A stretch of 64,000 bases of DNA from Candidatus Campbellbacteria bacterium (GTDB lineage: Bacteria; Patescibacteriota; Minisyncoccia; Phycocordibacterales; EsbW-18), in contig BTUR01000004.1 of assembly GCA_045863475.1 (NCBI GenBank), positions 2,628 through 66,627 of the forward strand, given 5' to 3'. How positions within the stretch are numbered: position 1 is the first letter of the stretch; every line of letters begins with the position of its first letter. A model generated the notes under the pieces. It worked only from the letters and a program-made list of their open reading frames with translations. It made no database searches and was not told the DNA's origin. This document shows, in pieces, positions 6,445 to 40,778 of the stretch. The position numbers and the translations under genes were made by a program.

Positions 6445-6729
6445 ATGAATCCCGATAGTGTAAAAAAGTTTTACTATGTGTATGTGCTCAAGAGTCGGAC
6501 AAATAATCAGTGGTATGTTGGCTATACATCTGATCTTCGAAAGAGATACATCGAGCATAGCCGCGGTAAGAGCACATACACAAAAAAACGCGGTCCGTAC
6601 GAATTAATATATTACGAAGCATACAGAAACGAGCAAGATGCAGTGTCACGAGAACAGCAACTTAAATCTGGGCAAGGGAAAATGTATCTACGCAGGAGAA
6701 TTAAAAGATTTTTAACACTATCGGGATGA
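6445..6729 (+). CDS. stand-alone GIY-YIG nuclease family protein (94 aa)
   Basis: YYVYVLKS...WYVGYTSDLRKRYIEH matches the GIY-YIG (URI domain) signature. Located between pheS and pheT with 4-bp overlaps on both sides. Confidence 0.7.
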   Translation: MNPDSVKKFYYVYVLKSRTNNQWYVGYTSDLRKRYIEHSRGKSTYTKKRGPYELIYYEAYRNEQDAVSREQQLKSGQGKMYLRRRIKRFLTLSG

Positions 6730-16329: not shown

Positions 16330-19300
16330 ATGAAAACAAACTTCGCACACATGCTTTCAACGACAACCGCAAAGGCGCTCTCCATCGGCGTAACGCTTTT
16401 TATCGTTACACTGTCGGTGGTTGCACCTCAGACGATTGCATCGCTTGATGCACAAATCGCAGCTGACACGGACAGTGAAAAGTCCGAGAAGGCGGAGCCC
16501 CAGGAACAGGAACCTCAGGAGCAGGAGCCCACAACGACGGGAGGCGGTTCTTCAACGAAGCCGAACCCGAAAGACGAAAGTCCGGAGGTGTCGTGTGAGA
16601 CACCGACGACTGAGGAAGGATTCCGCGCCATCCGCGACAACATGGGTCGCTGGGATTGGGACCTTGAGAACGGCAGCGTGACAATCCGCAACAACGACGA
16701 GAACTGCTCATGGCCCGTTGGTTTGAAATCATTCAAAATCTACAGTGAACAGAATCCGCAAAACGGCCAAACTCGTTTCGACGAGGATTGGGCGACGCTT
16801 GCTCCCGGTGAGACACGTACGTTTCAGGTAGATGTTCCGTCATGCCGCTACCAGCTCGACGCGCTCATTTTCCCGGCGATGCCGTACACGTCTGCAAAAC
16901 TCATTCGCGGTGAAATTAATTTTGATCTCCCGGTATGTGAGCGTCAGCTGGAGCCCCCGGCGTGTCCGTTTACACCCGAAGATGGCACTGTTGTCGTTTT
17001 CTCTCAGGACAGCGGCACCTACCTCGCATCCACTCCCGCATCGCGTCACTCTATCGGTCCGATGCATGTAACGCTTCCTCCCGGCACGTACACCGTCAAG
17101 ACGTTTTCATGGGACGGCTATGTCGGCCGCGAAAACGTGATGCAGATCCACGAGCAGTGGAACGTCATGCTCCGCGACGGCGCGGGTACAACGACAGGAC
17201 TTGCCGGTCCGACGACCGATCTCGCGGATCAAGTTCGCCAGACATCTCGTATTGATACATTCATCAACGCATTCACGGCGACCGCGACGACAACGCGCAT
17301 TTTCGCGCTGCACGCATTCCCGAACGACACCTCAAGCGCAAACAGCGTCGTACCTGTCTGTGCGGCTTTCAAGCGCACAGCACTGCCGCCCGCTGATCCT
17401 GCAACGCTTACGGTTATAAAGACCGTTATCAACGACGACGGTGGCACGCGACAAGTATCAGACTTTAATCTCTACGTTGGCACACAGAATGTAACGAGTG
17501 GTGCTACAAACGAATTTGCTCCCGGCACGTACACCGTTCGCGAAGACAATCTTCCGGGTTACACAGCATCAAATTGGATGGGGGATTGTTCTGCAACGGG
17601 ACAGGTAACGCTCGCGGCTGGACAGCACAAAATCTGCCGCATCACCAACAACGACAACCCGCCCGTTCCTGCAACCATTACGCTCATCAAGACCGTTCTC
17701 AACGACGATGGTGGTACGGCAGAAGTTTCTGACTTCAATCTCTACATCGGCAACAATGCGGTGCAGAGTGGTGTTCCGATGCAAATCGGCCCCGGCACAT
17801 ACACTGCACGTGAAGACCAGCTCCCTGGCTACACGGCATCAGATTGGATGGGGGACTGTTCGGCAAACGGTTCAGTAACGGTTGCAGCCGGAGAGCACAA
17901 GATTTGCCGCATCACCAACAATGATATTCCGACTGAGCCGCAGCACGCGACACTCACCGTTATCAAGACTGTTCTCAACGATGACGGTGGTACGGCAGAA
18001 GTTTCTGATTTTAATCTGTACGTCGGCACGATGCAGGTTACTTCCGGTGCCACGAACGCGTTTAACCCGGGTACGTATACCGTTCGCGAAGACCAGCTTC
18101 CCGGCTACACGGCGTCAGACTGGATGGGCGACTGTTCAGCTGACGGAGAAGTGACGCTTGTTCTCGGAGAACACAAGATTTGTCGCATCACCAACAATGA
18201 CAATCCGTTTAACCCGGATGACGCAACACTCACGGTCATCAAGACCGTTATCAATGACGACGGTGGCACGGCGCAGGTGGAGGATTTTCACCTCTACGTC
18301 GACGAACTTCAGGTTATAAGCGGTGAAGAAAACCGTTTCGCTCCCGGTACCTATACTGTGCACGAAGCGAACCTCCCGGGGTACGTCGCATCCGCTTGGA
18401 TGGGTGACTGTTCGGCAGACGGACAAGTTACGCTTGCATCAGGACAAAATAAAATCTGCCGCATCACCAACAACGACACACCCATCACTAACGGTGAGAC
18501 AACGATTACGCTTATTAAGACGGTCATCAACGACGATGGCGGCACTGCACAGGTATCTGACTTCAATCTCTACGTCGGGAACACGCAGGTGACGAGCGGT
18601 AACGCACTGTCAGTTACACCTGGCACGTACGCGGTTCGCGAGGATAACCTTTCAGGCTACACCGCATCAGGTTGGACGGGCGACTGTTCATCTGACGGTT
18701 CGGTAACACTTGCATCAGGCGATCACAAAATCTGCCGCATCACCAACAACGACAACGCCGGTGGAGGCGGAGGCGGTGGCGGAGGCGGTGGTGGCGGCGG
18801 TAGCCGACGCCCGCGCGTGACACTCTTCTCCAACCCGGAGATCTTGGGTGCATCCATCTCGCTCTCTCAAGTTCCGTACACCGGTCTTGGCACGAGCATC
18901 CTGCAGATTATCCTCTTCCTTATCGGTCTCGTTGCAATCGCAGGCGGGGTTACCTACATGCTCCTTCGCCGCCGATTCCCGGCAGCGGGAATTGAAATCC
19001 CGATGGAGCACGCGCCGATTCTTAAAGCACAAACACACACAACACCGGCACCGCGTGTTGCATACGACGACCTTGACGTTGCCGTTGCAGACGAAGGACA
19101 AGACGAGCTTGCGGTGTACGGTGAATATGAACACGCATTTGTTGTGGAAGAGACTCCTCGAACATCTATGCAGGTTCCGACGAATCTCCCGGTTGCGCCG
19201 GTAGCGGTTGCCAGTGTGGTACGTCAGTCGCCGGCAGCTCGCATGGTGCAAGAACACCGTGAAGAGAAACGACAGGTAGCGGTATCACTTGGTAAACTCC

Positions 19301-19890
19301 AGAATGCGGCACGCGCATCACAGTCCATTATTTCAGAAGACGGTCTGAAGCTTGTCATTGCATCTGCTGAAGGCAACGAACAGAAAGCGCTTGAACGCCT
19401 CACGGCAGTTATTGAAGTGGCCAAGACGCGCTACCCGCGCGAAGACGGCTGGCTCGTGCTTGATGCAACACGCATCCGCGAATCACTCTTTATCTCGATT
19501 CTCTCAACAGTCCCGCTTTTCATTGAATGGATTGTTCGTGGAGAAGACCGCAACATCTTCAGCTTCCTGCGCATGCTTAAGTCACAGAACCAGCCGGTTG
19601 CAGACTTCATCCGTAAGGTCGTTGCAGAGCTCGACAATGCGCACCGCGCACGCCTCGAAGGGGCAAGCGACGTGACCGTTGACCCGCATGTTGCCGAGGT
19701 AACGTACCATCTCTCAAATCGTGATTTGGAGATGATCGTCTCGGAGCTGCTCTCAGGTGTTGACGAACGATATGACTCCGCCTTTACGTCCGTTCGCCTC
19801 GCTTTGGTTCGCGTGCTCGATATCGTCAAAGCAAACCACATGACGCGTATTGGGGGCACCTACGCCTTCCAGGAGGGCTCGGAGGCCTAA
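16330..19890 (+). CDS. large cell-surface protein (1186 aa): signal peptide, five tandem roughly 93-aa prealbumin/Cna-B-like repeats, a Gly14 linker, a sorting-signal-like segment (VPYTG, TM, RRRF), then a roughly 320-aa C-terminal domain
   Basis: N-terminal hydrophobic signal. Repeats 'TLTVIKTV(I/L)NDDGGTAxVSDFNLYVG...PGTYTVREDxLPGYTASxWMGDCSxDGxVTLxxGxHKICRITNND' occur five times. GGGGGGGGGGGGGG. Then SLSQVPYTGLGTSILQIILFLIGLVAIAGGVTYMLLRRRF. Adjacent to the sortase gene. Confidence 0.75.
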   Translation: MKTNFAHMLSTTTAKALSIGVTLFIVTLSVVAPQTIASLDAQIAADTDSEKSEKAEPQEQEPQEQEPTTTGGGSSTKPNPKDESPEVSCETPTTEEGFRAIRDNMGRWDWDLENGSVTIRNNDENCSWPVGLKSFKIYSEQNPQNGQTRFDEDWATLAPGETRTFQVDVPSCRYQLDALIFPAMPYTSAKLIRGEINFDLPVCERQLEPPACPFTPEDGTVVVFSQDSGTYLASTPASRHSIGPMHVTLPPGTYTVKTFSWDGYVGRENVMQIHEQWNVMLRDGAGTTTGLAGPTTDLADQVRQTSRIDTFINAFTATATTTRIFALHAFPNDTSSANSVVPVCAAFKRTALPPADPATLTVIKTVINDDGGTRQVSDFNLYVGTQNVTSGATNEFAPGTYTVREDNLPGYTASNWMGDCSATGQVTLAAGQHKICRITNNDNPPVPATITLIKTVLNDDGGTAEVSDFNLYIGNNAVQSGVPMQIGPGTYTAREDQLPGYTASDWMGDCSANGSVTVAAGEHKICRITNNDIPTEPQHATLTVIKTVLNDDGGTAEVSDFNLYVGTMQVTSGATNAFNPGTYTVREDQLPGYTASDWMGDCSADGEVTLVLGEHKICRITNNDNPFNPDDATLTVIKTVINDDGGTAQVEDFHLYVDELQVISGEENRFAPGTYTVHEANLPGYVASAWMGDCSADGQVTLASGQNKICRITNNDTPITNGETTITLIKTVINDDGGTAQVSDFNLYVGNTQVTSGNALSVTPGTYAVREDNLSGYTASGWTGDCSSDGSVTLASGDHKICRITNNDNAGGGGGGGGGGGGGGSRRPRVTLFSNPEILGASISLSQVPYTGLGTSILQIILFLIGLVAIAGGVTYMLLRRRFPAAGIEIPMEHAPILKAQTHTTPAPRVAYDDLDVAVADEGQDELAVYGEYEHAFVVEETPRTSMQVPTNLPVAPVAVASVVRQSPAARMVQEHREEKRQVAVSLGKLQNAARASQSIISEDGLKLVIASAEGNEQKALERLTAVIEVAKTRYPREDGWLVLDATRIRESLFISILSTVPLFIEWIVRGEDRNIFSFLRMLKSQNQPVADFIRKVVAELDNAHRARLEGASDVTVDPHVAEVTYHLSNRDLEMIVSELLSGVDERYDSAFTSVRLALVRVLDIVKANHMTRIGGTYAFQEGSEA
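17390..18790 (+). repeat. Five tandem roughly 280-bp coding repeats (the prealbumin-like repeats of the surface protein)
   Basis: Repeats are evident in both protein and nucleotide sequence (recurring acgcttacggt.ataaagaccgtt.tcaacgacgatggtgg..). Confidence 0.7.
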
Positions 19891-27304: not shown

Positions 27305-28600
27305 ATGAGCGAGTTGTTTCGGTCAATCATCGATGCAGTCGGCCCGGTGTGGCGCTTCATAGTCATCGTTTTTACCTACGCGCCTGTCTGGATGCCGGTA
27401 CTCCTGGTATTTGCCGGCTGGAAATCGTGGATGCGGTACCGCCGAACGCTCTTTTTGTCAAAAAAAGAACCGGCGCTTCTGGAAGTGCGTGTTCCGAAAG
27501 AGGTGAACAAATCACCGTTTGCGATGGAGATGGTGCTCAATGCACTCTATGCTCCTGGCGGAGAGGGAACTTGGAAAGAAAAATATTGGCAAGGCGGCGT
27601 CCGTCCGTGGTTTTCACTTGAGCTTGTATCTATTGAGGGGCAGGTGCGTTTTTTCATCTGGACATGGAAGGATAGCGTAAAGTCCATTCAAAACAGCATC
27701 TACGCGCAGTACCCGACGACCGAGGTGTTTGAGGTGCCGGACTATACACTCGCGTTTCTTTACGACCCGGATAAGGCGGATATATCGGCGGCAGAATTTA
27801 TTCTCAGCAAACCCGACCCGTATCCGATTAAAACGTACGTTGACTACAAACTTGATAAAGACCCAAAGGAGGAGTTTAAGGTAGATCCGATTGCGCCAGC
27901 GCTTGAGTATCTCGGTGGCCTCGGGAAAGGTGAGCAAGTGTGGATACAGATTTTGGTGCGTGCGCACAAGAAGGAAGATTCAAAGGGCGGGTCGTTGTTC
28001 GGCATCATCAAGTCGGTGGAAGACCTCTTTGACATCAACAAGAAAGTGAAGGAACACTTTGAAAAGACCGACAAGTGGAAGGATGATGTGAAAACTGAGA
28101 TCGACAGCATCATTAAGAAGCGCAAGATACAAAGCGGTAAGGATGAGGAGTTTGGCATGGTGCAGCTCACAACGCAGGAAAAAGACACAATAGAAGCACT
28201 TGAGCGCAGTGTTACAAAACTGCCGTTTGACGTCGGTATTCGCACGGTCTACCTCGCTGAGAAAGATTATTTCAATAAAGGAAACAAAGGAGCACTTAAC
28301 GGTGTATTTGCGCAGTACAACACCCAGCACCTCAACGGTTTCAAGAAAGTGAACGGTACGAGCTTTGACTACGACATTCAGGATCCGTTTGGCTGGCGTG
28401 TTGCGCGTATGAAGCGCGACATGTTTGAAGCGTACCGTTTGCGCAGTTACTTCCACCCGCCGTTTAAGAAAAAACACTTTGTGCTCAACTCGGAAGAATT
28501 GGCGACGATTTACCACTTCCCGGGAGGATCCGTGGCAACGCCAACCTTCGGACGCATCGAGTCGCAAAAGGCAGAACCTCCGATGAATCTGCCGGTCTAG
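27305..28600 (+). CDS. hypothetical membrane-anchored protein (two N-terminal TM helices, large soluble domain)
   Basis: Long ORF with a hydrophobic N-terminus. No known motif recognised. Confidence 0.5.
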   Translation: MSELFRSIIDAVGPVWRFIVIVFTYAPVWMPVLLVFAGWKSWMRYRRTLFLSKKEPALLEVRVPKEVNKSPFAMEMVLNALYAPGGEGTWKEKYWQGGVRPWFSLELVSIEGQVRFFIWTWKDSVKSIQNSIYAQYPTTEVFEVPDYTLAFLYDPDKADISAAEFILSKPDPYPIKTYVDYKLDKDPKEEFKVDPIAPALEYLGGLGKGEQVWIQILVRAHKKEDSKGGSLFGIIKSVEDLFDINKKVKEHFEKTDKWKDDVKTEIDSIIKKRKIQSGKDEEFGMVQLTTQEKDTIEALERSVTKLPFDVGIRTVYLAEKDYFNKGNKGALNGVFAQYNTQHLNGFKKVNGTSFDYDIQDPFGWRVARMKRDMFEAYRLRSYFHPPFKKKHFVLNSEELATIYHFPGGSVATPTFGRIESQKAEPPMNLPV

Positions 28601-30496: not shown

Positions 30497-32959
30497 ATGG
30501 CCGTAAAAACACCATCAGAAGAGCCGAAAAAAGACGTCGAGCGCGTGAGTATCGTACCGCGCAGCGTCACCACGGAGATGAAAGAGTCGTACCTCGACTA
30601 TGCGATGTCCGTTATTACGGCGCGCGCGCTTCCTGATGTTCGTGACGGTCTCAAGCCGGTGCACCGCAGAATTTTGTACGCAATGTACAAGATGCACCTG
30701 TTGCCCACGGCAAAGGCGAAGAAGTCAGCGTCAGTGGTCGGTGAGGTGCTCGGTAAGTACCACCCGCATGGCGATGCGTCCGTGTATGACGCGATGGTAA
30801 ACATGGCACAGCCGTTTTCGTACCGCTATCCGCTTGTACTCGGACAAGGTAACTTCGGTTCCATCGACGGTGACCCGCCGGCGGCGATGCGATACACCGA
30901 GGCCCGCATGTCGCGCGTCGCGTTTGAAATGATGCGTGACCTGGAGAAAGAGACGGTCAGCTGGCGTCCGAACTACGACGGTGCACACAAAGAGCCGACG
31001 GTTCTGCCCGCGCTGCTCCCGAATATTTTACTTAACGGAACACTCGGTATTGCCGTGGGTATGGCGACGAATATTCCGCCGCACAACTTACGTGAAGTTG
31101 TTGCTGCAACGGAACACCTTATTGATAACCCGGATGCGACGACGGACGATCTCCTGGAGTTCATCAAAGGTCCCGACTTTCCGACCGGCGGCATAATTTA
31201 TAATGCAAAAGACATCAAGCACGCGTATGCAACCGGCAAGGGTGGCATTGTCACGCGCGGTGACGCGGAGATTGTTGAAGGGAAGAAGGGACAGTTCCAC
31301 ATCATCATCACCTCCATTCCGTACCGCGTGAACAAGTCGGACCTCATCGTCAAAATTGCCGACTTGGTGCACGAGAAGAAAATTGACGGTATCCGCGACA
31401 TCCGCGACGAGTCGACAAAAGACATCCGCGTCGTTATTGATTTGAAAACCGGCGCGTTCCCGGAAAAAGTTCTTAACTATCTCTACAAACACACACAACT
31501 GGAAGACACATTCCATCTCAATGTGGTGTGCCTCGTTGATGGTGTGCCGCAGACACTGTCGCTGAAGTCAATTCTCGAGGAGTTCGTCAAACACCGCCTC
31601 ACTGTCGTGCGGCTCCGCACGGAATACGATTTGCGCGAAGCACAGGCTCGCGAACACATTTTGCTCGGACTTTCCAAAGCACTCGATCACATCGATGAGG
31701 TCATCAAGGTCATCAAGAAATCCAAGGACACGAATGATGCGAAGACCTCTTTGATGCAGAAATTCAAATTCTCAGAGATACAGGCACTTGCCATTCTGGA
31801 CATGAAGCTCCAGAAGCTTGCAGGACTTGAGCGCAAGAAAATCGAAGATGAACTCAATGAAGTACAAAAGCGCATCGCGGAGTTCCAAACACTCCTTAAG
31901 AGCGAGCGAAAGATGCGCGACGTCATCAAAGGTGAGCTTGTTGAGGCGGGACAGAAACACGGTGATGATCGCAGAACACGTGTCTCACGCGGCGGTATTA
32001 CGGCGTTCTCAGCGGAAGACCTCATTCCGAACGAAGAAAACGTCGTCGTCTTTACACAGGGTGGCTACATCAAGCGCACAAATCCGTCGGAGTATCGGGC
32101 GCAGAAGCGCGGCGGTGTCGGCGTGATTGATCTCAATACCAAAGAAGAAGATTTTGTGACAATGGTTGTTGGTGCACACACGCACGATGACCTGCTGTTC
32201 TTCACGGACCGTGGCAAGGTGTACCAAATCAAGATGTACGAGCTTCCGGAGGGCAAGCGCGCAACGAAGGGTAAGTCCATCATGAACTTCCTCCAGTTGT
32301 CAGACGATGAACACGTGACGTCTATTTTGCCTCTGTCCGCCGAGACGAAGAAATCCGCCTCCGGTGTCATGATGGTGACGCGTCAAGGTGTTGTGAAAAA
32401 AGTGAAGGCGGAAAGCTTCATGGATGTGCGCCGCTCCGGCATCATCGCCATCAAACTTGAAAAGGGCGACGAGCTCATTACCACGAACACCGTGTCTTCA
32501 GGCGACGAGATACTACTTGTCACGAAGAAGGGGCAGTCTATTCGGTTCAAAGAAAGTGATGCGCGTCCTATGGGCCGCGCGGCGGGAGGTGTTCGCGCCA
32601 TCCGATTGGGAGGAAAAGATGTCGTCGTCGGCAGTAATGTTGTGACAAAGAAGGACGAGTCAGCGCTTCTTATCCTGCTTTCCAACGGGTACGGCAAGCG
32701 AACGCAGGTTTCTGAGTACAAAGTGCAGAAGCGCGGTGGTGGCGGCGTTAAAACTGCGAACGTAACGACAAAGACCGGGGATGTCATGGCGTCACAGGTG
32801 GTGACGGATGAAAGCGGCGAGCTCGTCGTCATCTCGCAGAAAGGCCAGGTCATCCGTGTTGCACTCAAGGAAATCCCGATGCTCGGCCGCGTCACACAGG
32901 GCGTGCGCATCATGAAAATGCGGGAAGGCGACTCCATCGCTTCGTTTGTTTGCCTCTAA
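30497..32959 (+). CDS. gyrA: DNA gyrase subunit A
   Basis: [22 protein letters not shown], the active-site Tyr region (AMRYTEARM), and C-terminal beta-pinwheel repeats. Confidence 0.92.
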
Positions 32960-33024
32960 TCGCCGGCTTCGTTGTCCGACAGTCCCTTTGGCACCCGAGA
33001 GCGGGTGCTTTATACTTTTCCTAT

Positions 33025-33555
33025 ATGTTTCTCCGTCCTGAAGATGTCATAGAGCGATTCCAGCTCGGGGAGGGAATGACGGTCGCGGACCTCGGTGTCG
33101 GCACCGGTGTGTATACGCTTGCGGCCGCAGAAGCTGTCGGCGAGCACGGTGTCGTGTACGGCTGCGATATCCAAAAAGAATTGCTCAGCAAAGTGTCTGC
33201 TGAGGCACAAAAACGCGGGCTCAAGAACCTGCATGTTATCTGGGCCGACCTGGAGGAAGAACGCGGCTCAACGCTTGCAGACGCGTCTGTTGATGCGGTC
33301 ACGGCGACAAATATCCTGTTTCAGATAGAGCATAAAGAGCGTTTTATGAAGGAGGTAAGCCGAATTCTGCGTCCGGGCGGCAAGGTGCTCATTGTTGACT
33401 GGAGTGATTCAGTCGGAGGCATGGGTCCGCACGCAGGCTCGGTGGTTCGCAGAAGCGTTGCACAATCGCTTGCGGAAGGTGTCGGTCTGCAGTTCCAGAA
33501 AGACGTGGACGCCGGTTCGCACCACTACGGCATGGTATTTAGAAAACCAAAATAG
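33025..33555 (+). CDS. class I SAM-dependent methyltransferase
   Basis: SAM-binding motif I VADLGVGTGVYTL and motif post-I VYGCDIQ. ATG at 33025; the ORF-track start at 32950 is further upstream. Confidence 0.7.
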   Translation: MFLRPEDVIERFQLGEGMTVADLGVGTGVYTLAAAEAVGEHGVVYGCDIQKELLSKVSAEAQKRGLKNLHVIWADLEEERGSTLADASVDAVTATNILFQIEHKERFMKEVSRILRPGGKVLIVDWSDSVGGMGPHAGSVVRRSVAQSLAEGVGLQFQKDVDAGSHHYGMVFRKPK

Positions 33556-33564
33556 AGAGCATGA

Positions 33565-33683
33565 ATCCCGTTAGAGGCTCTCGGTTGAGAGTGATTTTTT
33601 AATAAGAATGCGTCATACTGTGCGTGATAACCTTACTCATGATAACCACGAAAATGTTCGGCATTTTCTTTCTCTAACGGGAT
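33565..33683. repeat. MITE-like element, copy 2 (atcccgttagag ... ctctaacgggat) immediately upstream of, and overlapping, the 33682 start codon
   Basis: The same 10-12-bp inverted-repeat termini as copy 1 at 3395-3504, with a roughly 95-bp AT-rich core. Confidence 0.45.
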
Positions 33684-34980
33684 GAAAACATTTCAAACGA
33701 TACTACTGGCGGTCTTTGGATTCTTCATTGTTGCGGGCGTCATTGCGATTGCCTCGTTTGGGAAGTTCGGCGGCGGGGATGGCGACACCGTTCCGGCGGA
33801 AGGCGTTGTGTGGGGGACGCTTGATCAAAATCTTTTTCTGAACGCGGTTAACTTGTATAACGAAGACCACGACAACACGCTGAAAATTTTATACAAACAA
33901 TTTTCAGAAGACACATTCGACGAAGAACTCACGAGCGCACTTGCGGAGGGACGCGGACCGGACATGGTGATTATCACGAATGAGCGTTTGCTCCAGCACC
34001 AACAGAAACTGTACCCGGTGCCGTACGAATCACTCCCTGAACGGGGCTTTCGTGATACCTACGCACAGGGCGCGGAAATTTTCCTCGGGGCGCAGGGTGT
34101 ATATGCACTGCCGCTGTTTGCCGATCCGATGGTCATGTACTGGAATCGGATACTGTTTAACGCGGAAGGTATCGCACGTCCGCCGAAGCTTTGGGAAGAG
34201 GTGACGGCACTTGTTCCGCAGCTTACGAAGTCAGACTCGGCGTTTAACATCACACAGAGTGCAATTGCACTCGGTGAGCATCGCAATGTGACTCACGCAA
34301 AAGAAATTCTTGCGACGATGATTATGCAGGCAGGCAATCCGATTGTCGTGCGCGATGGGGACAAGTATCAAAGCATTCTCTCGGATCGGCTTGATCTTCC
34401 GGAGACGCCGGCGGACGCCGCGACGCGTTTCTTCACGGAGTTTGCGAACCCGGTGAAACCGTCGTACTCATGGAACCGCGCGCTGCCGGACGCAAAGGAA
34501 TCATTCATTCGCGGCGATGTTGCGATGTACCTCGGGTTTGCCAGCGAGTTGTTTGATATCCAGGATCAAAATCCGAACCTCAATTTTGACGTAACCCGCA
34601 TGCCGCAGGTTCGTGATGCGGTTGATAAGACCACCTTCGGCAAAATCTACGGCGTCGCCATTCTCAACCAGTCCCGTATAAAGCCCAACGCGTTTTCTGC
34701 TGCGGTACTGCTCTCAGGGGCTGATATGGCACCTCTGTGGGTGAATGCATTCTCGCTCCCGCCGGTTCGCCGCTCCATGCTCGCTCAGCTGCCGACGGAC
34801 CCGTATATGGCGGTGTTCTACCAGGATTCGCTTATTGCGCGTGGTTTCTATGATGCCGACCCGGGTCAAACGGATGAGGTATTCCGCCAGCTTATAGAGG
34901 ATGTGACGTCAGGGCGTCTTTCTACCTCACTGGCAATATTGCAGGCGGACGGCCGTATGGACGCCTTACTGGCGAGGTAG
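33682..34980 (+). CDS. membrane-anchored extracellular solute-binding protein (ABC transporter substrate-binding-like)
   Basis: N-terminal TM anchor. Size and composition resemble family-1 SBPs. No catalytic motif. Confidence 0.5.
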   Translation: MKTFQTILLAVFGFFIVAGVIAIASFGKFGGGDGDTVPAEGVVWGTLDQNLFLNAVNLYNEDHDNTLKILYKQFSEDTFDEELTSALAEGRGPDMVIITNERLLQHQQKLYPVPYESLPERGFRDTYAQGAEIFLGAQGVYALPLFADPMVMYWNRILFNAEGIARPPKLWEEVTALVPQLTKSDSAFNITQSAIALGEHRNVTHAKEILATMIMQAGNPIVVRDGDKYQSILSDRLDLPETPADAATRFFTEFANPVKPSYSWNRALPDAKESFIRGDVAMYLGFASELFDIQDQNPNLNFDVTRMPQVRDAVDKTTFGKIYGVAILNQSRIKPNAFSAAVLLSGADMAPLWVNAFSLPPVRRSMLAQLPTDPYMAVFYQDSLIARGFYDADPGQTDEVFRQLIEDVTSGRLSTSLAILQADGRMDALLAR

Positions 34981-35021: not shown

Positions 35022-35408
35022 ATGGATTGGAATCTGGTCAAGCGTGTAAGCGCGTATACATTGGTTTTTTTGATTATGGCATCACCGCTCTTAGTGCTTG
35101 CTCAAGGCGGCGGGCTGGTGCCATGCGGTGAAAAGGGGGACCCGTGTACATTCAATGACATCATCGCCCTCGTTAACACGATCATTAACTTTCTCATCAA
35201 GTTTGTTGCGATTCCCATCTCAACAATACTCTTTGCCTGGGCTGGTTTTTTGTATCTGACAGCTGCAGGGAACCCGACTCAGATAGGAAAAGCGACGACT
35301 ATCTTCACAGATGTGTTTATCGGCCTTGCCTTAGCACTTTCTGCATGGTTGGTGGTAAACCTAGTTACGAACGTTCTTACCGGCAAAAATCTCAATGAAT
35401 TCTTTTAA
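35022..35408 (+). CDS. TrbC/VirB2-like pilin family protein, paralog 1 of 6
   Basis: Signal peptide, Gly-rich GGGLVPCG segment, then two hydrophobic helices separated by AGNPTQIGK, as in VirB2 pilins. Confidence 0.55.
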   Translation: MDWNLVKRVSAYTLVFLIMASPLLVLAQGGGLVPCGEKGDPCTFNDIIALVNTIINFLIKFVAIPISTILFAWAGFLYLTAAGNPTQIGKATTIFTDVFIGLALALSAWLVVNLVTNVLTGKNLNEFF

Positions 35409-35805
35409 TTTAACTTTCATGAAAAAAAACTGCTTTAAAAACCTGCTTGCGTATCTGTTTACGTTTTTTCTACCAATCGTCTCACTTGCACAAAATCCCA
35501 GTACTATCAAAAATCCTCTTGAGGGAAAAGGGATCGATGATATCCCGGCGCTCATTACTGTTATCGTCGGTGCGGTGATGACCATCGGTTACTATATCGT
35601 CGTTGTTTTTATTATCTATGCCGGGTTTTTGTTTGTAACTGCGAGAGGAGACGAAAAAAAGTTGGGAGACGCAAAGAAAACGTTTCTCTACACAGTCATC
35701 GGCGCAACGATTCTTTTGGGCGCATCCATCCTTTCCACTGTTATTAAAAACACGGTAACCCAAGTCGGCGGACAACAGTCGTCCATCGTCGAATATCACG
35801 TATGA
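35395..35805 (+). CDS. TrbC/VirB2-like pilin family protein, paralog 2 of 6
   Basis: Shares the helix / xAxGDxxKxxxxK / helix architecture with the neighbouring paralogs. Confidence 0.55.
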   Translation: MNSFNLTFMKKNCFKNLLAYLFTFFLPIVSLAQNPSTIKNPLEGKGIDDIPALITVIVGAVMTIGYYIVVVFIIYAGFLFVTARGDEKKLGDAKKTFLYTVIGATILLGASILSTVIKNTVTQVGGQQSSIVEYHV

Positions 35806-36110
35806 AAAAATATCTAGGTATCCTATCCGCAATGCTCGCCACGCCACTTGTTATGTTTGCGGCAGCCCCGAAGAATCTCGGTGAGCTCATCGGCATCGCA
35901 ACAAGTCTCATCAATCCCATTCTAAGTTTACTGACGGGACTCGCCGTACTTTACTTCGTTTGGGGCATTGTGAAGTACATCAAGAGCGCGGGAGATGCAA
36001 AAGCCGCTGCTGAAGGGAAGAGCATCATGCTGTACGGAATTCTGGGGCTCTTCGTCTTATTTTCGTTCTGGGGTATCGTGCAATTCATTTACACCGATAT
36101 TTTCGGATAA
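35802..36110 (+). CDS. TrbC/VirB2-like pilin family protein, paralog 3 of 6
   Basis: LYFVWGIVKYIKSAGDAKAAAEGKSIMLYGILGLFVLF, the conserved family motif. Confidence 0.55.
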   Translation: MKKYLGILSAMLATPLVMFAAAPKNLGELIGIATSLINPILSLLTGLAVLYFVWGIVKYIKSAGDAKAAAEGKSIMLYGILGLFVLFSFWGIVQFIYTDIFG

Positions 36111-36132
36111 TTAACAATAACTAGTAATACTA

Positions 36133-36510
36133 ATGATTATGAAAAAAGGTCCATGGTTGATTTCAACGGGAACACTTACCCTTTTTACACTTCCGTTTAT
36201 TGCGGCTGCACAGGTGTTGCCTAAAACGAATGTGCTGCTTGGGAGCTTCGGCACGCTTGTTAACATGGCGCTTGGTATAACAGCGACCATCGCGCTTCTC
36301 GTGTTCTTCTGGGGTATCGTGAAGTACATTTCAGCGGCAGGGGACGCGGACAAGGCAAAAGACGGTAAGAGCATTATGCTCTACGGCGCCATTGCACTGT
36401 TTGTGCTGTTCTCAATCTTTGGCATCATCAGGTGGCTGCGCGGTGAATTCGGTGTCCTGGATAACCGCGATATGGGAAGTCCGCAGGTCAATCCGTACGT
36501 GCAACCCTAG
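36133..36510 (+). CDS. TrbC/VirB2-like pilin family protein, paralog 4 of 6
   Basis: LVFFWGIVKYISAAGDADKAKDGKSIMLYGAIALFVLF. Confidence 0.55.
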   Translation: MIMKKGPWLISTGTLTLFTLPFIAAAQVLPKTNVLLGSFGTLVNMALGITATIALLVFFWGIVKYISAAGDADKAKDGKSIMLYGAIALFVLFSIFGIIRWLRGEFGVLDNRDMGSPQVNPYVQP

Positions 36511-36624
36511 TCTTTGGGTTTCCACTCGGATTCTGTTGTGGAAGGGCGAATATTGGTATTATGGATATATGTCCGTACAGGACAGCACTTATTTAGAAAT
36601 TAAACGTTAACACAAGCTAATCGT

Positions 36625-36972
36625 ATGAAAAATTCTTGGAAAGCGCTCGTGGTGCTCGCGGCAGTAACGCCGGCATTCGCGTTCGCACAGCTCGGCAACA
36701 TCGAGAACATCGTTGAAGCCATTGGTAATCTCGTGCGCCTCGCAACACCTATTGTTGTGGGTCTCGCACTCCTCGCGTTCTTCTGGGGGCTGGTCAAGTT
36801 TATCTTCTCTGCAGGTGATGAGGATGCGCGTAAAGACGCAAAGCACCTCATGATCTGGAGCGTTGTTGCGCTGTTCGTCATGATTTCAATTGTCGGTATC
36901 ATCGGCTTCATCGGCAACGCACTTGATATTGACCAGGGAGGTACACTTCCGGTTCCTGAGGTTGAGGACTAA
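36625..36972 (+). CDS. TrbC/VirB2-like pilin family protein, paralog 5 of 6
   Basis: LAFFWGLVKFIFSAGDEDARKDAKHLMIWSVVALFVMI. Confidence 0.55.
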   Translation: MKNSWKALVVLAAVTPAFAFAQLGNIENIVEAIGNLVRLATPIVVGLALLAFFWGLVKFIFSAGDEDARKDAKHLMIWSVVALFVMISIVGIIGFIGNALDIDQGGTLPVPEVED

Positions 36973-36977
36973 GACAC

Positions 36978-37283
36978 ATGACGCTTGATGCATTCCTTCA
37001 AAACGTCGTTAGTACGATACTTGAGCCGGGGTTATTTCTTCTGTTTGGTATCGCATTCGTGATATTTGTGTGGGGAATCGTCACATTCATCCGTGACGCG
37101 GATGACGCGGGCGGACGTGAGACGGGGAAGAAGAATATCATCTGGGGCATCGTCGGTATGGTGATTATGGTGTCGGTGTACGGCATCATCCGGATTGCCT
37201 ACGGAACAATCGGAGGAAATCCGAACGACATACCTAACGAAGGTCCCTTCCTTCCTGAAAACACGGTGGAAAATCCGCTCTAG
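36978..37283 (+). CDS. TrbC/VirB2-like pilin family protein, paralog 6 of 6
   Basis: FVIFVWGIVTFIRDADDAGGRETGKKNIIWGIVGMVIMV. Confidence 0.55.
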   Translation: MTLDAFLQNVVSTILEPGLFLLFGIAFVIFVWGIVTFIRDADDAGGRETGKKNIIWGIVGMVIMVSVYGIIRIAYGTIGGNPNDIPNEGPFLPENTVENPL

Positions 37284-37292
37284 GAAAAACAA

Positions 37293-37378
37293 GACAAAAG
37301 AAAAAAACCGGGCCTCGCGCGCAATGCGCGGGGCCCGGTTCGGTTGTGGCTGCGTTTCAGGCAGCCTAGGTTACGGAC
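37293..37378. repeat. Duplicated 3'-end module, copy A: last codons plus stop of the 37371 gene, a ggctgc...gcagcc hairpin, and a bidirectional terminator hairpin ccgggcctcgcgcgcaatgcgcggggcccgg
   Basis: About 90 bp near-identical to 38727-38812; the single difference is ttacgGactt versus ttacgAactt. Confidence 0.7.
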
Positions 37379-38627
37379 TTGGAATCAACGTTGAGAGGTT
37401 CGGACACGAAAACGACATCGGCCGCTTAGTGCTGGGGCTCGAGGAACTCCACGAGAACCCGTTGAGCGTCTGTGTGGTGAAGTCCGGGTTGGTGAACTCG
37501 AATGCACCACGGTCCTTCGGGTACGTTTGTTCCCAGGTTCCCATCTCTGCCGTGACGAGCATGAATTGCGTGTTGCTCCGCCGGCGTTCAGAAACCACCT
37601 CGAACCTTCCCGGACCGACGATTCTGGCTGAGTAGGTTGTTCCTTCGATGAAGAAGGAGCACGGGTACTTCTCAGTAAACCTTGATGCCGGTCTCGCTAC
37701 CGAATCTGAGTCGGTCTGTGCGACACCTGTGATGTAGAAGGGAATCCACGCGTTGTCGCGACCGGTGTCGCGGAATTGTCCGAGGATTCTCATGCCGGAT
37801 CCTGGGGCGACCGGTTGTTCGAACCAATCACCACCAGTCCCGCCGAGATCGCCGTTGTTCTTCCAGTGTCCTTTGCCGCTGACGCGATCAAGGAAAAAGG
37901 AAGATGACTCCATTTCGCCGCCGTTCCGATGAAACACCGTGAACGACAGGACACTTTGCGTGTCCGTGTCGATACGGACGTCCAGGCAGGTCGCCCGAAG
38001 ACCGGGTTTATAGCCCTTTACTCCGGGAGGCTTGCTCCAGCACCACTGCATCTTGGTGGGAATGGTGCCTGCTGTCGCAGATGCCGCCGGCCCCGACCTC
38101 TGCTCCACCGCCCTCTTCTTGGCTTCCAACAATCCCCACTGGTCGATACCCGAAAGGGCACCAACGCAGATTAGGATTAGTCCAACAACGGAGAGTGGTT
38201 TGATTGCTCGGAAGGTTCCGAAAATCAAGGTCATGAAGGTGCTCACCACCACGGTAGCAAAACCGATTCGCATGATGGTTGTCCACGTTGGTCCGGCTGT
38301 TGGTATGAGACTTGTGAGTCTAAACAGGATACCAGCCAGGACAGTGATGCCGATGAGACCAATCCACTTGAGTCTGGCATCTTGGATGCCGGACACCTTG
38401 AGAATGGCCGCACCAACCAGAACCAACCCGAACAGAACTCCTACAATTGTGATGGTCCAGAAGAGATCCCAACTCCAGTCGCCGCCAGCAGCTACGAAAA
38501 GCAAACCAAGGCTAAGCGCAAGGAGTGTGGTAGTGATCACCATGGTGACAACAACCATCATTGCCACGCGAGGCGAGTACCGTGCAGCCTTTTCCAAGAG
38601 GTTGGACAGACGGTCAAAAATGTTCAT
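37371..38627 (-). CDS. membrane protein (five N-terminal TM helices, large C-terminal extracellular domain)
   Basis: The C-terminal domain (ARIVGPGRFEV...TAEMGTWEQTYPKDRGAFEFTNPDF...PSP*) is paralogous to the C-terminus of the 38801 gene. Confidence 0.65.
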   Translation of the reverse strand: MNIFDRLSNLLEKAARYSPRVAMMVVVTMVITTTLLALSLGLLFVAAGGDWSWDLFWTITIVGVLFGLVLVGAAILKVSGIQDARLKWIGLIGITVLAGILFRLTSLIPTAGPTWTTIMRIGFATVVVSTFMTLIFGTFRAIKPLSVVGLILICVGALSGIDQWGLLEAKKRAVEQRSGPAASATAGTIPTKMQWCWSKPPGVKGYKPGLRATCLDVRIDTDTQSVLSFTVFHRNGGEMESSSFFLDRVSGKGHWKNNGDLGGTGGDWFEQPVAPGSGMRILGQFRDTGRDNAWIPFYITGVAQTDSDSVARPASRFTEKYPCSFFIEGTTYSARIVGPGRFEVVSERRRSNTQFMLVTAEMGTWEQTYPKDRGAFEFTNPDFTTQTLNGFSWSSSSPSTKRPMSFSCPNLSTLIPSP

Positions 38628-38726: not shown

Positions 38727-38812
38727 AAAGAAAAAAACCGGGCCTCGCGCGCAATGCGCGGGGCCCGGTTCGGTTGTGGCTGCGTTTCAGGCAGCCTAGG
38801 TTACGAACTTGG
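38727..38812. repeat. Duplicated 3'-end module, copy B (after the 38801 gene)
   Basis: See copy A; it includes the stop codon and the last codons (..PSS*). Confidence 0.7.
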
Positions 38813-39631
38813 ATGAGGAACGGCTCCCTCGCAGGTAAGTGTGATGATGCGCTCACCCCGGTACGGATACCGGTCGCTCTTGGACACACCCTTGAAGACG
38901 CCGTCGACGTAGTCGGCGCTGCTCCACTCGAAGGTTCCGTAGTCAGATTCGAATTCCTCAGACCAGGTACCTTTGTTGTAGAGGTTCCAGTAGAGGTCAG
39001 CGGTTACATGTCTGCCAGGGCGAATCTTGGCATGTCCCGGTCCGACGATGATTGCATCATGTCGGAACGCACACTCATTTCTTGGTGTGCCGAAGCAGTA
39101 AGAGCAACGTATGCTATCTTCCAGTGGTTTTCTGGATGACCCCGATTCACTGTGTGACACCGAGGCCGAGTTTGACTTCTGGCTGTCCTTGAGTTTCTTG
39201 AGTTTCTCGAGAAGCTCAAGGGTCATGGGAACGGTCTTACAGCCCGTGTCTGGGTCAAACTCATGCTCCGACAGCGCCTTTCCGACGACCTTGCCGTTAC
39301 AGATGACGGCTCTCGCGTTCGGCTGACCACTTTTCGGGTCGAAGTTGTCCTGCGGCAACCGCTCCTCGAACTGACGTGACAGCCACTTCATGGAAGCAGC
39401 AGTCGGTGACCATGCAGAGAGGAACAGCCAGGCGACGACGGCGGAGAGGCCGACAGTCAGCATCTTGTACAGCTTGTGCTCGCGCCCGGTCCACAGCATC
39501 GTGATTGCCATGGCGATGAGGCCGATGGCGACCCATGTGCTTCCTTCAGGCAGAGCTGAACGAACGGCTGCCAAGAGGAACAGTACGATGGCGACGGTTC
39601 CGAAGATCCGCCACTGCGTAGCTCTGGTCAT
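38801..39631 (-). CDS. membrane-anchored protein paralogous to 37371-38627 in its C-terminal domain
   Basis: Start at MTRATQWRIF... (ATG 39631), overlapping the upstream stop (ATGA). C-terminal IIVGPGHAKIRPG...GTWSEEFESDYGTFEWSSADY...PSS*. Confidence 0.6.
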   Translation of the reverse strand: MTRATQWRIFGTVAIVLFLLAAVRSALPEGSTWVAIGLIAMAITMLWTGREHKLYKMLTVGLSAVVAWLFLSAWSPTAASMKWLSRQFEERLPQDNFDPKSGQPNARAVICNGKVVGKALSEHEFDPDTGCKTVPMTLELLEKLKKLKDSQKSNSASVSHSESGSSRKPLEDSIRCSYCFGTPRNECAFRHDAIIVGPGHAKIRPGRHVTADLYWNLYNKGTWSEEFESDYGTFEWSSADYVDGVFKGVSKSDRYPYRGERIITLTCEGAVPHPSS

Positions 39632-40389
39632 TTCGTTTCTCCTGGAACAAGCCGGAAGATGTTGAAGGACGCGGTGAGGAGCGCTGATGTCGCGAGGGCG
39701 ACAATGAGTTTCCCTGCGCCCGGCGACACCACGAACCACCACCAGAACACGATGGACAGAACGAGCAGGGCGAGCATCATGATTGCGTAGGCCTTAGCGG
39801 ACCACGTGAGGATCTTGCCTGCCTTGTCAGCCGCTTCTTTGGCCGTCGCTTTCGCAGCCTCCAAAGCGGTATTCTTCTCGCGAACCTCTCGAAGCAGAAG
39901 CGACACCATCATGTCTGCCGCCTCCGGACTGCGAGTCGAGCTTCTGAGAAATCCGATGATGAGCGACTCCGGCTCAAATCCCGCCGGATATGCCTCGCGC
40001 TGAACCGGTTCCTCGATGACCTCCGTGACGCCTCCCTTGCGCTGTCGCGTCGTCTTCTTGATGAAGGTGAGCATGCGCGGGGGAAGGTAGCCGTCTTTCG
40101 CCTGCGTGAACATCTCAGCAATCGCTTGCTCGACGGCATCACGTTCGTCAGGCGTCTTGAGGCGGTTGATTGCATCAACGAGAATCTTGCGTCTCTTGAA
40201 GGGGAGAAACTTGTCGTTGTTCACGACCGTGTTGAAGTCCAGTTTCTCCTTCTTCTGATCGTCGGGCTTCTTGCTGTCCGTTGTGGTTGCGACCGTCTTC
40301 ACCGCCTCCTTCCCGAGTTTACCGAGAAGCGCCGCGATGGAATCGCGAATTGCGTGGGCGATCAAGTCGTCCCAGATGTTTTTGAACAT
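39628..40389 (-). CDS. hypothetical protein with a C-terminal TM hairpin (about 254 aa)
   Basis: RBS GGAGAA precedes ATG (MFKNIWDD...). Lys/Glu-rich and coiled-coil-like, with two C-terminal TM helices. Confidence 0.55.
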   Translation of the reverse strand: MFKNIWDDLIAHAIRDSIAALLGKLGKEAVKTVATTTDSKKPDDQKKEKLDFNTVVNNDKFLPFKRRKILVDAINRLKTPDERDAVEQAIAEMFTQAKDGYLPPRMLTFIKKTTRQRKGGVTEVIEEPVQREAYPAGFEPESLIIGFLRSSTRSPEAADMMVSLLLREVREKNTALEAAKATAKEAADKAGKILTWSAKAYAIMMLALLVLSIVFWWWFVVSPGAGKLIVALATSALLTASFNIFRLVPGETK

Positions 40390-40778
40390 CTTCGTTCTCC
40401 TTTGGAGAGTGAGGGGTAAAGACGATTGTATGTACAAGCTCTACGAGAGAGCGTTATTTTCCAAGTTCGTTGTTAGAGAGCTTCTGTTGAGAATATAGCA
40501 CAAACAGGCCAAAAAGTCAAGTTATGAAAAGACAAATCACGGCTCTACAGAGCCGTGGTTTAAGCAAAACAAAATCACCGAACGCGGTGCGCTCGGTTCT
40601 TTGTTTTGTGGGCGGGAGAGTCGGCCAAGCGCTCGCTTGTTGCCGTCGCTCCTCGCTCCGCTCAGCCCTGCTCTTGCGACCCCGTCTGCCACCGGGGTGC
40701 CCGCAATTCGCCTTCGAGTCCTCTCTCGCTGACAAACAAAATCGCCCAAGGACTCGCCCTGGACTCATTTGTTTGTTG

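Follow-up and report, generated by a model that had tools for sequence, protein, structure and literature searches.

A conserved tandem array of six VirB2-like pilin genes in a Campbellbacteria-like chromosome

Why would a bacterium with a small genome keep six different genes for one kind of pilin side by side? The question is raised by a stretch of 64,000 nucleotides (contig BTUR01000004.1 of assembly GCA_045863475.1, hereafter the window) from a Candidatus Campbellbacteria bacterium, in which six consecutive genes on the plus strand (35022-37283) encode small membrane proteins resembling VirB2 and TrbC, the pilins of type IV secretion systems (T4SS). A recent survey, based on searches with the families PF18895 and PF04956, reported 441 VirB2 arrays of 2-11 genes in 383 Patescibacteria assemblies and suggested that they confer antigenic or host-range versatility (Quinonero-Coronel et al. 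2025, PMC12102498). The function of the Patescibacteria T4SS/pilin system has been described as completely unknown (PMC11665869). Because each paralog of the window has orthologs at the corresponding place in the arrays of related genomes, and because similar hairpins occur naturally fused in single polypeptides, we consider it probable, with modest confidence, that the array is an operon of six anciently diverged VirB2-type T4SS pilins that have distinct roles and co-assemble into one heteromeric surface structure.

The six genes and their family

The open reading frames (ORFs) of the window include six consecutive plus-strand genes at exactly the coordinates given in a preliminary description of the sequence, and a hidden Markov model (HMM) built from 37 orthologous proteins matches these six and no other ORF in the 64 kb. 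Their orthologs are conserved with non-synonymous divergence (pN) well below synonymous divergence (pS), and the nucleotides of the array are 100% identical to those of an independent public contig, so the six genes can be regarded as real. An identical contig is present in DRR491768/9. Pairwise identity among the six proteins is low (mean 29%, range 17-47%). Nevertheless, types 1-2 and types 3-6, compared by hhalign from independent alignments that shared no type 1-2 sequence of the window, align over 96 columns with a probability of 97.4% (E 9e-12), indicating that all six are clearly homologous to one another.

All six proteins exceed the whole-protein Pfam gathering score of PF18895 (T4SS_pilin, 26.6 bits), with 28.5, 30.2, 43.4, 34.5, 42.8 and 31.7 bits for types 1 to 6, respectively. 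Type 2 also exceeds that of PF04956 (TrbC/VirB2, 27.9 bits) with 34.7 bits, and type 1 falls below it with 21.0 bits. Homologs of type 3 (38 found) all carry PF18895 and belong to Patescibacteria, one of them being named 'pilin [Candidatus Campbellbacteria bacterium]' by NCBI. Types 1-2 were also compared with six annotated VirB2/TrbC proteins from Ti and other alphaproteobacterial plasmids, a set located with a VirB2 query, the comparison itself using database sequences only; hhalign aligned the two groups over 64 columns covering both helices (E 2.2e-4, probability 45%). The family is very large, since its profile matches 54,372 clusters of 50% identity at E <= 1e-3 among 1.84 billion representatives. 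A tblastn search with paralog 2 against 72,556 plasmids gave no match. On these profile scores the six genes can be assigned to the small two-helix VirB2-like T4SS-type pilins of the PF18895/TrbC-like family, in agreement with the TrbC/VirB2-like nature first proposed for them.

The paralogs differ in their N-termini, motifs and tails (signal-peptide cleavage sites, marked by a slash, were predicted by eye). Type 1 (35022-35408, +, 128 aa) belongs to the TrbC-like subgroup and has a signal peptide ending in VLA/Q followed by a two-helix hairpin. The Gly-rich GGGxxPCG segment noticed earlier in this protein is real and reads GGGLVPCG; its conserved core, GGLVPC...C(T/N)F, contains two Cys and is present in the six closest genomes, and is common, yet not universal, across the class. 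Type 2 (35419-35805, +, 128 aa) has a signal peptide ending in SLA/Q, an NPL motif and the hairpin, and is the most VirB2/TrbC-like member. Its longest ORF spans 35395-35805 (136 aa), and public gene calls on the identical contig start at the ATG at 35419. In one related genome (L006) the type 2 protein carries a Gly/Pro-rich insert after the signal peptide. Type 3 (35802-36110, +, 102 aa; 92 aa from a later start in the public gene calls, for which reason no exact match to the 102-aa sequence was obtained) combines a signal peptide with a hairpin of the form FVWGIVKYI..SAGD around the loop. Type 4 (36133-36510, +, 125 aa) has a signal peptide ending in AAA/Q, the hairpin and an acidic C-terminal tail, and type 5 (36625-36972, +, 115 aa), with a signal peptide ending in AFAFA/QLGN, is the best-conserved member. 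Type 6 (36978-37283, +, 101 aa), the last gene of the array, encodes a hairpin without signal peptide and with an acidic Pro/Asn-rich C-terminal tail.

Hydropathy analysis gives three hydrophobic segments in paralogs 1-5, corresponding to a signal peptide with an AxA-type site, usually followed by Gln, and to two helices. The leader is missing from paralog 6, which shows two hydrophobic segments only, and from its orthologs in all related genomes; among the 38 genomes compared, nearly every complete array ends with a gene devoid of a conventional signal peptide. The signal/transmembrane segment initially attributed to all six thus holds for the first five and not for the sixth. Likewise, the motif FxWG(I/L)V(K/T)(Y/F)I, at first thought to be common to the array, is found in types 3-6, as F(V/F)WG(I/L)V(K/T)(Y/F)I..(A/D)(G/D)D, whereas types 1-2 have A(W/Y)AGFL(Y/F)(L/V)TA instead, extended as AGFL(Y/F)(L/V)TA(A/R)G(N/D). 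Lys and Arg are confined to the loop between the helices, and the C-terminal tails are acidic. AlphaFold2 models type 3 as a helical hairpin (pLDDT 87.6; helices 2-20, the signal peptide, 26-61 and 66-101) and mature type 2 as a hairpin of lower confidence (helices 15-50 and 55-92); the predicted fold is compatible with a T4SS pilin and is not proof of one.

In distant Paceibacteria (L031-L036, L039, L042, L045, L047, L048) the leaderless last pilin opens with a peptide of 10-13 residues ending in A-x-A, for example MNFDIIPKAEA/S and MSLLSFVPSALA/A. This N-terminus is too short for a normal Sec signal and may be a short propeptide.

The six genes form one operon-like unit closed by a strong hairpin terminator. 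Their junctions consist of a 4-nt ATGA overlap (the type 3 ATG over the type 2 stop), gaps of 5-22 nt and a single gap of 114 nt before gene 5 (36511-36624, +). The only sizeable gap of the array falls before the type 5 gene in all six loci compared (71-114 nt; window, L001, L002, L006, L008, L009). In the window it contains a -10-like TATAAT/TATTAT element, an A-rich leader and a weak terminator-like hairpin (36570-36584), and a TATAAT-like element is present in three of the six aligned loci. An internal promoter may therefore lie there and divide the array into genes 1-4 and 5-6. The gap has no significant RNA structure (fold z-score -0.24), and a promoter and terminator scan inside the array found nothing above shuffled expectation. 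Downstream, a GC-rich 14-bp hairpin (37307-37339) lies between the pilin operon and a convergent minus-strand gene (37371-38627), with a U-tract on the minus-strand side. The 87-nt stretch that contains it (37284-37370) has a minimum free energy of -46.9 kcal/mol on the plus strand (z -5.9) and of -41.5 kcal/mol on the minus strand (z -4.9), and the hairpin is likely a bidirectional terminator.

Positional orthology, natural fusions and a proposed assembly

The best match of each window paralog in five other genomes is the gene at the same array position, with 44-86% identity on the diagonal and 13-50% off it. Positional orthologs share 46-57% identity for type 1, 46-58% for type 4 and 56-86% for type 5, and GyrA shares 75-91% across the same genome comparisons. 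All ortholog pairs have a pN of 0.09-0.36 for a pS of 0.52-0.82, the lowest pN of the six (0.088, against L002) being that of type 5. The retention of positional orthologs and the excess of pS over pN throughout favour fixed, non-redundant subunits over antigenic variants.

The same arrangement extends over the class. One genome per species was scanned, giving 38 loci, among them Campbellbacteria-like genomes and genomes with Zambryskibacteria, Taylorbacteria and other Parcubacteria/Paceibacteria titles. According to type-specific HMMs, most arrays of at least four genes start with type 1 and type 2, continue with two to five type 3/4/5-like genes and end with type 6, and the complete 1-2-3-4-5-6 order is found in the ten closest loci that carry the full array. 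Array size varies from 3 to 8 pilin genes in the 35 loci where the array directly follows a gene for a solute-binding protein, and an extra type 3/4-like copy is present in L002 and L003. Many loci (L011, L012, L014, L016, L017 and others) come from TPA assemblies titled 'uncultured Candidatus Saccharibacteria bacterium' despite their Paceibacteria-type block; their synteny, and the identity of their GyrA to that of Campbellbacteria-like genomes, make these titles look generic or assigned to the wrong taxon. In two distant Parcubacteria (L043, 7730-10816; L046, 4463-8076) the pilin-like matches lie inside stop-to-stop ORFs of 280-530 codons, which suggests long N-terminal extensions or insertions.

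Moreover, many of the top matches of the family profile are single polypeptides with 2-8 tandem hairpins ('poly-pilins'), for instance six in P0039, eight in P0054, three in P0041 and two in P0058. The 820-aa P0054 is identical in independent JGI and ENA assemblies (L049, 9925-16481; L050, 230-6786), where it is accompanied by CPR-like (Candidate Phyla Radiation) housekeeping genes and then by genes for a pilin (155 aa), a pilin-PKD fusion (383 aa) and a PKD-repeat protein (718 aa). Such fusion preserves topology, since each hairpin starts and ends outside the cell, and by the Rosetta-stone argument it implies that paralogous hairpins act in one assembly. No description of poly-pilins was found in the cited literature on Patescibacteria pilin arrays.

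We propose the following sequence of events. As inferred from established T4SS biology, paralogs 1-5 would be inserted by the Sec pathway and lose their signal peptide, and paralog 6 would enter the membrane without one. Each pilin would then be a membrane-embedded helical hairpin of N-out/C-out topology, its Lys/Arg-bearing loop facing the cytoplasm, until a VirB4-type ATPase machine encoded elsewhere on the chromosome pulls the hairpins out. These would co-assemble as one heteromeric filament or conduit, with the loops facing the lumen, rather than serve as interchangeable variants. Distinct structural roles, like those of major and minor pilins, may fall to types 1-2 (TrbC-like, with longer exposed N-termini), types 3-5 (the core) and type 6 (leaderless and terminal). 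The analogy is with type IV pili and the pseudopili of type II secretion systems, whose ordered operons of diverged paralogs, each its own orthologous group, are thought to co-assemble in distinct roles. No homology is implied, because type IV pilins have one N-terminal helix and a globular domain, a prepilin peptidase and the PilB ATPase, that is, an unrelated fold and machinery. On the analogy of Southlakia epibionticum, whose pilin series is essential, the finished structure would serve a contact-dependent (epibiotic) lifestyle through export to, or uptake from, a host cell.

Several observations weigh against this proposal. One concerns the secretion machinery: phmmer searches with 12 pCF10 proteins (PrgD to PcfC, including homologs of VirB1, 3, 4, 6, 8 and D4) had no match with E <= 1 in either the window or five syntenic loci of 20 kb, and the 38 loci had none with E <= 1e-5 in the 10 kb around the array (no VirB4, VirD4 or VirB6). 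Dependence on VirB4 is consequently presumed, and the evidence for VirB4 elsewhere in such genomes is that of published tables. Table S1 of PMC12102498 enters Campbellbacteria genomes as VirB4-positive, including LiPW_30, whose locus (L025) carries the same block as the window; in Table S3, VirB4, type IV coupling protein and VirB1 genes are scattered in Campbellbacteria and the small pilin-like genes are marked 'VirB4 proximity: No'. In addition, a pilus has never been seen for a T4SS of Patescibacteria, nor polymerisation with phospholipid into an extracellular filament demonstrated (PMC12857230).

Other points concern selection and relatedness. Synonymous distances are saturated (dS not computable or above 1 in most pairs), making dN/dS unusable as a number, and the conclusion on selection rests on pN being lower than pS. 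The non-synonymous divergence of the pilins is 3-7 times that of gyrA and similar to that of the adjacent solute-binding protein gene, and some diversifying pressure on exposed parts of the pilins is conceivable. Types 3-6 have no match to PF04956, leaving type 2 as the sole member above its threshold, and their comparison with the same six VirB2/TrbC proteins is not significant (hhalign probability 5%). Since types 1-2 do align with those proteins, they would bridge classical VirB2/TrbC and the PF18895 core. Finally, a Foldseek search of the PDB with the models of types 3 and 2 gave no match at E <= 0.001; the sole conjugative pilus among the matches listed (8dfu) ranked 16th with an E-value of 5.6, a helical hairpin being too simple to discriminate. 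PDB profile searches with two family alignments returned chance matches only (E >= 0.03) and no solved relative.

Known relatives and alternative explanations

The published arrays offer the nearest comparison. They were defined as at least two VirB2/PF18895 genes in tandem or one gene apart in a Patescibacteria genome, with low paralog identity, and by this definition the window holds one, its mean and maximum identities (29% and 47%) being similar to the published 25% and 54% (PMC12102498). The pilin series of S. epibionticum is essential, as established by transposon sequencing for ML1 only (PMC10633639, PMC12857230), and it has been speculated that the pilus acts as a conduit (PMC12857230). 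The window array shares with ML1 (T4SS cluster SEML1_0006-0019) and with the published arrays the phylum, the PF18895 family and the tandem arrangement, and with ML1 also the number of six copies. Unlike that of ML1, it lies outside a T4SS cluster, with no VirB4, VirB3, VirB6, VirB8 or VirD4 in the 64 kb, and within a class-wide block of gyrA, methyltransferase and solute-binding protein genes. The TrbC/VirB2 pilins of diderm MPF_T systems (Agrobacterium VirB2, TrbC) have the same Sec signal peptide, two-helix hairpin and short loop, but here the host is monoderm, six paralogs take the place of one major pilin, and there is neither an adjacent virB1 or virB3 nor a VirB5.

The alternative that survives best, to which we give a minor but appreciable chance, is that the six proteins are VirB2/PrgF-like parts of a channel spanning the membrane or cell wall in a monoderm-type T4SS, without an extended pilus. 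It is consistent with the relationship of Patescibacteria T4SS to the pilus-less monoderm MPF_FATA class (PMC12102498), and in part of Table S3 of the same survey, virB4-distant tandem small genes of Campbellbacteria are labelled piecemeal 'T_virB2' and/or 'FATA_PrgF', PF18895 being entered there only for genes marked near virB4. PrgF of pCF10 and the Mbov_0395 proteins of integrative and conjugative elements (ICEs) are small two-helix transmembrane hairpins like the window pilins, and the poly-hairpin fusions, with up to 16 predicted transmembrane helices, resemble integral membrane proteins. All six paralogs also match NF045849 (NCBIfam; Mbov_0395 family pilin-like conjugal transfer protein, from Mycoplasma ICEs), five of them with E-values of 2e-7 to 2e-3 and paralog 1 with E 0.76. 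However, these matches score 9.5-30.3 bits, all below the cutoff of 40; PrgF compared with the family profile is not significant (hhalign E 0.024, probability 2%), and neither PrgF nor PrgG matches PF18895. PrgF moreover lacks a signal peptide and is encoded by a single-copy gene within a T4SS operon, unlike the window array, and the exposed tails, acidic and Pro-rich, point, like the pilin-PKD fusion, to display at the surface. This channel differs from the heteromeric assembly proposed above in the length of the assembly only, and the latter may itself be a long pilus or a short envelope-spanning conduit.

That the six paralogs are interchangeable pilins serving antigenic variation or host-strain matching, as proposed for Bartonella and Anaplasma and suggested for Patescibacteria (PMC12102498), seems to us rather unlikely. 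The VirB2 arrays of Bartonella and Anaplasma, cited in the same survey, are likewise tandem amplifications in host-dependent bacteria and have been read as antigenic or host-range variants; the low identity among the window paralogs, the variable copy number among genomes (4 to 8) and the faster non-synonymous divergence than that of GyrA would all agree with such a use. Orthology and purifying selection in the window argue instead for fixed roles: orthologs of each paralog hold its array position in all related genomes examined, the order of types is kept throughout the class, and pN is lower than pS for all paralogs. Cassette shuffling is not seen, the array being 100% identical in two independent samples, hairpins of the same subgroups are fused in one polypeptide, and a member always without signal peptide argues for a distinct role. 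Of the 'antigenic or functional diversification' put forward in the preliminary description, the functional part is thus favoured, given positional orthologs in genomes with 75-91% GyrA identity, and the antigenic part disfavoured.

The genomic setting raises two further possibilities. The window consists of housekeeping DNA (prfB, rpsB, pheST, gyrB, leuS, a sigma factor, yceG, gyrA, infB, clpB, murJ, lepA, ten tRNA genes and others), and the chromosome is that of an ultrasmall, Campbellbacteria-like member of Patescibacteria, class Paceibacteria; the names of homologs and the titles of syntenic loci confirm the CPR host surmised from the letters alone. Upstream of the array (32950-34980) are a gene for a class I S-adenosylmethionine-dependent methyltransferase (UbiE/ArsM-like) and a gene for an orphan solute-binding protein (SBP) anchored in the membrane by its N-terminus (33682-34980, +, 432 aa; SBP_bac_1/MalE-like). 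The latter matches the Pfam families SBP_bac_1 (9.2e-16) and SBP_bac_8 (1.1e-14), with a distant MalE match in NCBIfam, and its gene ends 41 nt upstream of pilin 1. Neither an ABC permease or ATPase for it nor any T4SS family was found among the scanned ORFs of the window, the absence of VirB4, VirB6 and VirB11 noted at the outset being upheld by the family scans and the pCF10 queries alike.

The common order in related loci is gyrA, methyltransferase, SBP, six or seven pilins, variable convergent genes and rbfA-infB, and it is found also in a complete Campbellbacteria chromosome of 811 kb, the closest complete genome (CP064977.1, GCA_016699465.1). Among the 38 species-representative loci, 35 have the SBP gene as the immediate upstream neighbour of the array, the methyltransferase gene and gyrA being also upstream in most, and the adjacency is kept in loci that lack gyrA or in which an insertion sets it apart (L034, L035, L014). 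The main text of PMC12102498 does not mention this context (the terms solute, substrate-binding, gyrA and gyrase are absent). The SBP is therefore a conserved neighbour of the array, and a functional link with the pilins is only suggested by synteny.

In a more speculative extension of the heteromeric assembly, which we consider improbable, the Paceibacteria pilins would form an obligately heteromeric ordered assembly (type 1, type 2, core types 3-5 and leaderless type 6), similar to a set of major and minor pilins and maybe a conduit ring or layer, with genes uncoupled from virB4 and permanently coupled to that of the SBP. With the SBP it would be a device for the uptake of host-derived molecules and not a pilus for secretion or conjugation, the poly-pilin and pilin-PKD fusions being variants of it. 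Still less credible to us is a VirB4-independent uptake or surface module formed by the array and the orphan SBP, whose resemblance to T4SS pilins would reflect shared ancestry only. It would account for the persistent adjacency of the SBP gene, even without adjacent gyrA, and for the lack of both an ABC permease/ATPase partner in the window and a T4SS gene within 10 kb at any locus. However, gyrA and the methyltransferase gene lie in the same block, which may thus be plain synteny in slowly rearranging small genomes, and we know of no transporter that uses such hairpins. Elsewhere in the phylum, moreover, PF18895 genes adjoin virB4 (in 1135 of 1948 assemblies; PMC12102498). The reading as unrelated small membrane proteins (class II bacteriocins, immunity proteins or holins), which the small size and two hydrophobic helices might suggest and which the preliminary description had named as the outcome that would overturn its own, is refuted and can be set aside almost entirely: no such family was found for the six in Pfam (E <= 1), NCBIfam or PHROGs, all six pass PF18895, and their housekeeping position is conserved, with no bacteriocin ABC exporter or phage genes nearby.

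Other features of the window and significance of the array

Three convergent minus-strand genes without Pfam or NCBIfam match follow the array (37371-38627, 38801-39742 and 39628-40437). Two of their products have a multi-transmembrane N-terminus and Cys-containing C-terminal modules, 'CWSKP...' and 'C(S/T)(F/Y)(C/F)..(I/V)(V/I)GPGRFE', which occur together in the 418-aa protein and are shuffled among the syntenic loci of related genomes. From their sequences they look like a mosaic, fast-changing family of membrane or surface proteins beside the pilins.

Other putative surface proteins are encoded further away. In the region 14537-19890, genes for a 347-aa protein with a CARDB domain and for a 223-aa sortase are clustered with a gene whose 1186-aa product has five SpaA_2 prealbumin-like domains and also matches Cna_B. 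The cluster resembles the sortase-dependent loci of Gram-positive type that encode a surface fibre or adhesin, here in a CPR genome. The 1327-aa product of another gene (58891-62874) matches thrombospondin type 3 repeats and PA14 and is probably a giant adhesin of the cell surface. A transposase-like ORF of the IS110/IS116/IS902 family (12512-13612, 366 aa), with a weak Transposase_20 match, separates gyrB from the sortase cluster; genomes as small as this seldom carry mobile elements. For a protein of 431 aa (27305-28600) that begins with a transmembrane segment, the Pfam copy searched gave no match, whereas precomputed annotations tag its orthologs as PF26449 (DUF8128); every syntenic locus has its gene in the same place, flanked by those for the sigma factor and YceG. 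Finally, the beta subunit of phenylalanyl-tRNA synthetase (6726-9149, 807 aa) matches NlpC/P60 weakly and in part, over residues 445-487 (E 2.5e-7), with no single stretch passing, which is possibly noise.

Much about the array is already known: the family has a Pfam model and bears the NCBI name 'pilin', and tandem arrays, including a six-gene example, were described in papers of 2023-2025; in this respect the locus is an ordinary further example. Three features look modestly new and are offered as leads, namely the class-wide positional orthology with a leaderless last subunit, the block of gyrA, methyltransferase, SBP and array detached from virB4, and the poly-pilin and pilin-PKD fusions.

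Much of the diversity of bacteria belongs to Patescibacteria, which are dependent on host cells, and the T4SS and pilin series are essential in the one species tested. In Paceibacteria the pilin paralogs appear as a fixed, ordered and conserved set, closer to a multi-subunit machine than to a variation cassette, and this set can live far from virB4, beside an orphan SBP. If co-assembly is true, all six subunits would have to be purified and modelled together, and the published hypothesis of antigenic variation would be weakened.

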